From Eledone cirrhosa (Eukaryota), in contig OZ024761.1 in the NCBI GenBank assembly GCA_964016885.1, positions 20,460,001 through 20,524,000 on the forward strand: a stretch of 64,000 bases of DNA. Reading direction: 5' to 3'. The position numbers and the translations under genes are program-made. Of this stretch, positions 11,071 through 12,318 are shown piece after piece (within the stretch, counting starts at the first letter, position 1; each line of letters begins with the position of its first letter). Below the pieces are notes generated by a model. That model did not search any database and had not been told where the DNA came from. It worked only from the letters and a program-made list of their open reading frames with translations.

Positions 11071-12318
11071 TCAGAGTTGATACCTATTAAATCGTTTCGA
11101 TGTGAGACATGTAGCTCAACTTTTGCTACTGAATATCTTATGAAAAGACATGCCACAATCCATTCTGACAAGAAGCCATTTCAATGTGACCTCTGCCCCC
11201 TGTCTTTCTCCCAAAACAGTGACCTTGTGAAGCACCGACGTGTCCATACGGGTGAGAAACCCTTCGAATGTGATGTTTGTCCTGCTGCATTTTCACGCAA
11301 CACTTCCCTCAAGCTGCACAAAATGATCCACTCCGGCGACAAGCCGTTCCCGTGCCCTGTCACATCCTGCACCTCAGCTTTTTCTACTCAGCACCTACTC
11401 CAGAGACACGCCATGATTCACTCTGGTATCAGGCCACATCAATGTGACCTGTGTCCTGCTGCCTTCATTCAGCGCAGTGACCTCTCAAAACACCACAAGA
11501 CACACACTGGAGAAAAAGACTTCCTCTGCGACCTCTGCTCTGCGGCTTTCTCCCGTCGCAGCTCACTCAAACTGCACCGCATGTACCATACAGGAGAGAA
11601 GCCCTACGTATGTCCGTTCTGCGGTTCAGGCTTTATTACACACAGCCTGCTCAATCGACACAGGCTTCTCCATGCTGGGGTCAAACCATATTCTTGTGAT
11701 TTGTGTGATGCGGCGTTTGCCCAGAACAGTGACCTCGTTAAACACGGTCGGGTCCACACTGGCGAAAGGCCTTTTAAATGCACAACCTGTCCAGCTGCTT
11801 TTTCTCGCAGACATTCCTTGAAGCAACACCATGCAATCCACAATGGTGAGAAACCACTCAAGTGTGAAGACTGCGGGGTTGCCTTCACCACACAGAGTCT
11901 GCTAAAACGCCATCGCAAAATTCATTTGGGAATTAAACCTTTCAAATGCCCTCTTTGTCCTGCAGCATTTATACAACGAAGCGACCTGAAGAAGCACAAC
12001 CAAGTACATACTGGCATTAAAGCTTTCCATTGTTCTGAATGTGGGTCCTCGTTCTCTCGAAGCAGCTCTCTCAAAGAACATATTACAATCCACACAGGGA
12101 TTCGCCCATTCAAATGCCAAGTGTGTAACGCGGCGTTTGCAACACAGAGTTTCCTGAGAAGACATTTTAAAATCCACACGAATCCGTGCCAGTCCAACAA
12201 CTCCACCAACATCTGTTGCGATGCTCTCTTAACTAACAATGTCCTCCAAAGTGTCGGAGCCCCAACAGGTCAAATTATAAAGCAAACCAGCAACCCTCAG
12301 TTGGGTGAAGAGTTTTAA
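10963..12318 (+). CDS. C2H2 zinc-finger protein with 13 tandem fingers and an N-terminal 7-aa repeat
   Basis: 451-aa ORF with 13 C-x2(4)-C-x12-H-x3-H motifs joined by TGEKP-like linkers, preceded by (M-x-x-D-Q-T-R/K)x5. The start codon and any upstream exons are unverified. Confidence 0.95.
   Translation: MSVDQTRMPMDQTRMTMDQTKMPMDQTRMTMDQTKMSELIPIKSFRCETCSSTFATEYLMKRHATIHSDKKPFQCDLCPLSFSQNSDLVKHRRVHTGEKPFECDVCPAAFSRNTSLKLHKMIHSGDKPFPCPVTSCTSAFSTQHLLQRHAMIHSGIRPHQCDLCPAAFIQRSDLSKHHKTHTGEKDFLCDLCSAAFSRRSSLKLHRMYHTGEKPYVCPFCGSGFITHSLLNRHRLLHAGVKPYSCDLCDAAFAQNSDLVKHGRVHTGERPFKCTTCPAAFSRRHSLKQHHAIHNGEKPLKCEDCGVAFTTQSLLKRHRKIHLGIKPFKCPLCPAAFIQRSDLKKHNQVHTGIKAFHCSECGSSFSRSSSLKEHITIHTGIRPFKCQVCNAAFATQSFLRRHFKIHTNPCQSNNSTNICCDALLTNNVLQSVGAPTGQIIKQTSNPQLGEEF

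Follow-up and report, generated by a model that had tools for sequence, protein, structure and literature searches.

Four contiguous three-finger modules with retained predicted DNA contacts in an old thirteen-finger C2H2 array

The window analysed here, a 64-kb stretch of 64,000 nucleotides, is AT-rich, microsatellite-laden animal sequence whose repeats have an octopod-like appearance, and it holds a single multi-finger gene. This gene lies on the forward strand in an open frame that runs from stop to stop over positions 10942 to 12318 (458 amino acids), one coding stretch that carries the whole finger array; its first ATG, at 10963, yields a protein of 451 amino acids, and a further exon may lie upstream. 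Ahead of the fingers, a 21-bp tandem unit present six times with 83% matches (10945 to 11070, forward strand) encodes 7-residue repeats of the MDQT type. Thirteen contiguous C2H2 fingers follow at 11101 to 12177, each a copy of the motif C-x2-4-C-x12-H-x3-H, with the core Phe in 13 of 13 and the core Leu in 12 of 13, and the protein closes with a C-terminal tail of 46 residues and the stop codon (12178 to 12318, forward strand). A Pfam search of the 451 residues returned C2H2-type families (zf-H2C2_2, E value 2e-92) and a weak BolA match over a stretch of fingers, and found no KRAB, SCAN, BTB, or SET domain; neither KRAB nor any other effector domain was found in the 451 residues or in the 150 of the 184 other window frames that were scanned. 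The AlphaFold single-sequence model of the protein had a pLDDT of 31 and was unusable.

Repeated DNA lies on both sides of the gene. Between 500 and 900 bases before the first ATG, at 10061 to 10460, there is a local duplication of about 180 to 200 bp whose pieces are 79 to 90% alike, and about 330 bases past the stop codon, at 12650 to 12860, lies a very high-copy interspersed repeat, to which contigs from organism A align in their tens of thousands.

Read from the N terminus, the residues at helix positions -1, 3, and 6 run TLR, QDK, RSL, TLR, QDK, RSL, TLR, QDK, RSQ, TLR, QDK, RSE, TFR, exactly as the preliminary description had given them, and the strict three-finger periodicity that it proposed is borne out. 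Identity at these positions is 0.90 between fingers three apart, a value reached by 1 in 200,000 shuffles of finger order. Fingers six apart score 0.86, and for lags of 1, 2, 4, 5, and 7 identity drops to 0.00. The fingers thus fall into three classes that differ everywhere at these positions (class-to-class identity, 0.00). Position -1 is invariant in each class (T in all 5 class A fingers, Q in all 4 QDK fingers, R in all 4 RSx fingers); all three contacts are identical in 13 of the 22 same-class finger pairs, and two or more are identical in all 22. Strict identity of the modules is broken in two places: finger 13 has phenylalanine at position 3, and the four RSx fingers carry, in order, L, L, Q, and E at position 6.

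The linkers give a hint of how the array is divided. From His to Cys they measure 7 residues in all 12 junctions, the canonical length of TGEKP-type linkers, and 6 of the 12 begin with threonine. This first linker threonine has a capping role and is present in 79% of 7,482 linkers from a comparison set; in our array it is found after none of four TLR (class A) fingers, after four of four QDK fingers, and after two of four RSx fingers. The absence of the threonine behind TLR fingers suggests that the array is divided into QDK-RSx-TLR modules with looser joints between them. With boundaries inferred from the linkers in this way, finger 1 (class A, TLR; 11101 to 11163) is a leading extra finger, and all the others group into module 1 (fingers 2 to 4, QDK, RSL, TLR; 11185 to 11421), module 2 (fingers 5 to 7, QDK, RSL, TLR; 11443 to 11673), module 3 (fingers 8 to 10, QDK, RSQ, TLR; 11695 to 11925), and module 4 (fingers 11 to 13, QDK, RSE, TFR; 11947 to 12177), all on the forward strand.

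How old these repeats are can be read from positions that do not contact DNA. We counted 12 free positions in each finger, that is, positions that are neither structural nor contact. Within a class, 32 of 122 comparisons of four-fold degenerate third positions show the same base, against a chance expectation of 0.26, and between classes 56 of 206 do; silent sites being at chance, neither recent duplication nor ongoing gene conversion keeps the contacts alike, and we reject both as the cause of the match. The free positions have retained more memory than the silent sites, with an identity of 0.29 within classes versus 0.19 between them (P = 0.005), which makes it likely that the fingers of a class are duplicates and fits descent from one triplet. 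Together with the period of 3 in the contacts, this supports the triplet duplication that had been proposed. At lag 3 the 12 free positions reach an identity of 0.32, against 0.90 for the contacts, and with silent sites saturated these values argue, as the preliminary description had suggested, for long-term selection keeping the same reading residues in each module. Even the closest pair of fingers, identical at 20 of 28 residues, differs at the other 8, and the array does not appear among the entries of a tandem-repeat list of its stretch. In PRDM9-type minisatellite arrays, fingers are near-identical in DNA and their contacts are hypervariable; here, finger DNA is 39 to 63% identical, silent sites are at chance, and the contacts are conserved.

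A second, nested period of six fingers had been proposed as well, with a hexamer duplication following that of the triplet. The strings on which it was based are present (QNSDLVKH in fingers 2 and 8, CPAAFIQRSDL in fingers 5 and 11), but the duplication itself finds no support: over whole fingers, identity at lag 6 (0.55) is no higher than at lag 3 (0.56), and the joint permutation test gives P = 0.84. The alternation is confined to the QDK class (fingers 2, 5, 8, and 11), in which four columns group fingers 2 and 8 or 5 and 11 and the other two groupings have one column each; the TLR class behaves in the opposite way, and the RSx fingers favour neither arrangement. Trees built from the four three-finger units do not allow any topology to be rejected; in either phase the hexamer tree comes second (p-AU, 0.46 and 0.36).

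The gap between contacts and free positions was placed against 379 proteins fetched by homologue searches, which provide 31,659 within-array finger pairs. Where at most 6 of the 12 free positions are alike in such a pair, a full match at the three contacts occurs in no more than 1.1% of cases, and even where 10 to 12 are alike, in 8 to 25% only; ordinary duplicates, in other words, lose their contacts first. Among 364 distinct arrays of at least 9 fingers, the largest contact-minus-free gap is 0.16, against 0.58 in our array; seven of the 364 reach a contact identity of 0.7 at their best lag, and the free identity of all seven is 0.63 to 0.97. A sliding-window version of the measure gave a best gap of 0.40 among 353 proteins, in an array that shows similarity between adjacent fingers too, versus 0.62 here, and the gap in metagenome arrays (38 arrays from 80 loci) is at most 0.02. 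The comparison arrays are matches to this protein, rich in young vertebrate and very long arrays, and none of those with a name is from a cephalopod. Old conserved or homotypic arrays and cephalopod paralogues are thus under-sampled, and our array may look rarer than it is.

Periodic contacts of three or four fingers occur in P0067, P0030, P0209, P0252, and P0154, whose fingers are 73 to 81% identical over their last 18 residues and which, judged by that sequence identity, are young duplications. The nearest parallel, a weaker one, is P0148, which alternates QDK with ENR at a free identity of only 0.42.

Cross-species alignments show the array strongly conserved in two other organisms. One contig of organism B aligns gap-free from 11067 to 12269, ending within the C-terminal tail, and differs at 139 of 1,203 bases, and three contigs of organism C align without gaps to 11067 to 11351, 11421 to 11633, and 11608 to 12218. 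Since the alignments begin at 11067, beside an ATG at 11068, the upstream 21-bp repeats are not shared with organisms B and C at 80% likeness. Individual differences were listed for 40 of 168, of which the 38 in frame make 30 silent and 5 changed codons. Over 11067 to 11430 (119 codons, fingers 1 to 4), where the list is assumed complete (36 differences in 364 bases, against 11.6% overall), dS is 0.47 to 0.52 and dN 0.018 to 0.022, giving a dN/dS of about 0.04. Judging from these alignments, the gene is under strong purifying selection and its finger number is fixed. An arms race with young transposons is disfavoured by the dN/dS of fingers 1 to 4 taken as a whole, although some of the few changes there lie on the helix.

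Purifying selection extends beyond the contacts. Of the five amino acid changes in fingers 1 to 4, two fall on the helix (position 6 of finger 3 and position 2 of finger 4), both at positions that already vary between repeats, and three fall elsewhere; the 11 class-defining contacts of these fingers show no change among the listed differences, a count that five changes in total are too few to make informative. The statement that backbone residues had diverged and base-contacting residues had been retained holds between the repeats; between species, where the backbone is conserved as well, the listed changes lend it no support. A comparison of dN/dS at contact and non-contact positions had been suggested as a check, and as far as the listed differences of fingers 1 to 4 go, the contacts are not favoured over the rest.

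Among the matches listed, protein searches gave only generic finger proteins. Searches for proteins of near, longer, and shorter length gave best identities of 46%, 48%, and 52% among the 120 matches listed in each, with no named cephalopod protein among them; two of these searches covered up to 8,000 candidates each, so the blank does not amount to the absence of an orthologue. Likewise, the best identity among 150 representative proteins was 53%, with no orthologue; the first 270 proteins contained no run of at least six consecutive fingers fitting the fingerprint at 60%; and exact look-ups of 10 start variants of the protein found none. The ESM Atlas yielded generic finger clusters, viral contigs no match, and solved structures only generic finger proteins, and among the 80 of 181 metagenome loci covered the best identity was 47% and the fingerprint fit at most 0.33.

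What the array may read was derived from a general recognition code, with the fingers lying antiparallel to the DNA: TLR would specify G-N-T, RSx N-N-G, and QDK (G/T)-C-A. The prediction for every module is therefore one and the same 9-bp word, approximately 5'-GNT-NNG-KCA-3', as in the preliminary description. According to the accessible text of PMC3113560, predictions of this type are degenerate and depend on context. The alternative of a target with a 3-bp period, which the preliminary description had left open, is unlikely, because three fingers wholly different at all of positions -1, 3, and 6 would have to read one triplet. Within the 64-kb window the predicted 9-mer is not enriched (106 exact occurrences over three phases, against 141 in shuffles), and the doubled word with at most two mismatches occurs 8 times, against 9.8 by chance.

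Tandem units of 41 to 50 bp and of 123 bp, all of one family, lie in the window at 8843 to 9242, 5032 to 5510, and 20477 to 20704.

On what the sequence offers, we lean toward a conserved, sequence-specific DNA-binding protein whose four modules share one specificity and would be used multivalently or in alternative registers. An old three-finger module is present in four copies, which with one extra finger make the 13 contiguous fingers, and selection would since have held all four modules to one specificity. Multivalent use would take place on clustered copies of the word, and alternative registers would be used on single copies; in either case, the protein would be a conserved regulator with a long-standing target and would not follow young transposons. 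That proteins often use different subsets of their fingers is described in the accessible parts of PMC13541613.

Two known proteins come close to this preferred reading. In BCL11B, 7 of 8 contacts are kept between two distant arrays, which bind similar clustered motifs (PMC13225276, accessible text), and our protein resembles it in that repeated modules of one protein keep nearly all of their base-contacting residues, binding being predicted in our case; the two arrays of BCL11B, however, lie about 300 residues apart, whereas here four three-finger modules are contiguous and joined by canonical linkers. ZNF775 likewise holds homologous three-finger arrays in one protein, three of them, with a common consensus conserved since the marsupial split, as reported in the accessible parts of PMC13541613; its arrays are separated, whereas our modules adjoin. 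The duplicates in ZNF775 and ZNF721 are, by the working definition of that GHT-SELEX paper, at most 5 edits apart per finger and tend to diverge in specificity, whereas the closest fingers here differ at 8 of 28 residues with the contacts kept. Homotypic, internally duplicated arrays are thus already known, and what is new is a set of four contiguous, silent-site-saturated modules with retained contacts. A literature survey that took in few subscription papers and no supplements found nothing on this gene, on periodic cephalopod arrays, or on helix-to-triplet data for these helices.

An unlikely alternative, though one with points in its favour, is that the whole array reads one continuous stretch with a 9-bp period, 27 to 39 bp long, in a satellite, a minisatellite, or a repeat-derived element. 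The modules are contiguous, linker length is canonical at every junction, and a period of 3 fingers fits a site with a 9-bp period; satellite-binding zinc-finger proteins do exist, such as ZFP819 (PMC9616502) and, by the match of its duplicated arrays to alpha-satellite sequence, ZNF721 (PMC13541613), in both cases going by the accessible text. Against this, the missing threonines of the class A linkers hint at looser joints between modules, and the predicted word forms no tandem array in the 64 kb, a window too small to test for a genome-wide target. Its sole three-unit near match, at 55880 to 55906 on the reverse strand, consists of three head-to-tail near copies with 2 mismatches in 18 specified places, is located in unique DNA, and was chosen once three different lengths had been tried; a match of this kind arises in 17 of 400 shuffles, and this one is probably due to chance. 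Satellites usually turn over fast, whereas the repeats of this gene are saturated at silent sites and the protein is nearly static. Since the modules of BCL11B and ZNF775 are described as keeping their contacts with no tandem target involved, the pattern can be explained without a 9-bp tandem target, possible as one is. If the array were such a reader, long conserved and spanning as much as 39 bp of continuous DNA, its register would have been held for longer than silent sites retain memory; this would point to an ancient tandem repeat with a function, whether centromeric, structural, or regulatory, in this animal lineage and would name the protein that binds it.

KRAB zinc-finger repressors that target satellites and transposons (PMC9616502 and PMC10547256, accessible text), ZFP819 among them, resemble our protein in their long run of C2H2 fingers, which might dock onto repetitive DNA. 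The differences are that no KRAB or effector family is found in the 451 residues here, although an upstream exon could encode one, that selection over fingers 1 to 4 as a whole is purifying and not positive, and that no target repeat was found in the 64 kb.

Rather less probable still is that the array is a frozen relic, in which an old triplet duplication has been preserved by general purifying selection, the contacts are simply the slowest positions of a working finger, one or two modules do the binding, and the period has no role of its own. The conservation of the whole protein between species, backbone included, would be expected of such a relic, and triplet duplication is in itself ordinary: C2H2 arrays usually grow by two to four fingers per step (PMC1553488), and 140 human proteins carry array duplications (PMC13541613), as far as the accessible text of each goes. 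Idle modules, however, would lose their contacts, whereas all four modules keep them although their free positions have fallen to about 0.3 identity. Moreover, contacts diverge faster than backbone in the comparison set, and the human duplicated arrays tend to diverge in predicted specificity, again according to the accessible parts of PMC13541613.

C2H2 fingers can also bind RNA and proteins, and the Leu or Phe at position 3 of the class A fingers is rare (among 9,536 comparison fingers, TLR occurs 4 times and TFR once), but that RNA or a repetitive protein partner, in place of double-stranded DNA, is what the conserved faces of the helices bind is highly improbable, given that the conserved positions are exactly the canonical base contacts -1, 3, and 6 and not 1, 5, or strand residues, that the linkers are of the DNA-binding type, and that the triple QDK recurs in nature (104 of the 9,536 fingers).

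When finger arrays are duplicated, the DNA-reading residues are usually the first to diverge; in this array the opposite happened, four times over, after which it remained fixed. Cephalopods have over a thousand C2H2 genes (PMC12513265, accessible text), and our gene resembles these expanded sets in being a multi-finger gene in a repeat-rich animal genome, though it differs in standing as the lone multi-finger gene of its 64 kb. Few genes in these very large C2H2 sets, most of them uncharacterised, offer what this one does, a sharp prediction from sequence (one word, four modules) that is cheap to test, and the array can serve as a test of contiguous homotypic modules and of whether they act through avidity, alternative registers, or a periodic target.

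Elsewhere in the window, a trypsin-family serine protease exon lies on the reverse strand at 1473 to 1632, with AG/GT ends and a Pfam Trypsin match (E value 1.6e-8), and spans the region from the mature N terminus to the catalytic His motif. At 42045 to 43100 on the forward strand there is a LINE reverse-transcriptase fragment with a PHD-like finger, and near it, on the opposite strand, a lone C2H2 finger at 44138 to 44203 (reverse) that is probably also retroelement-derived. At 58486 to 60534, 33-bp units (11 residues each) are repeated in tandem and leave both strands open for some 2 kb; this array looks like a minisatellite, not a gene.
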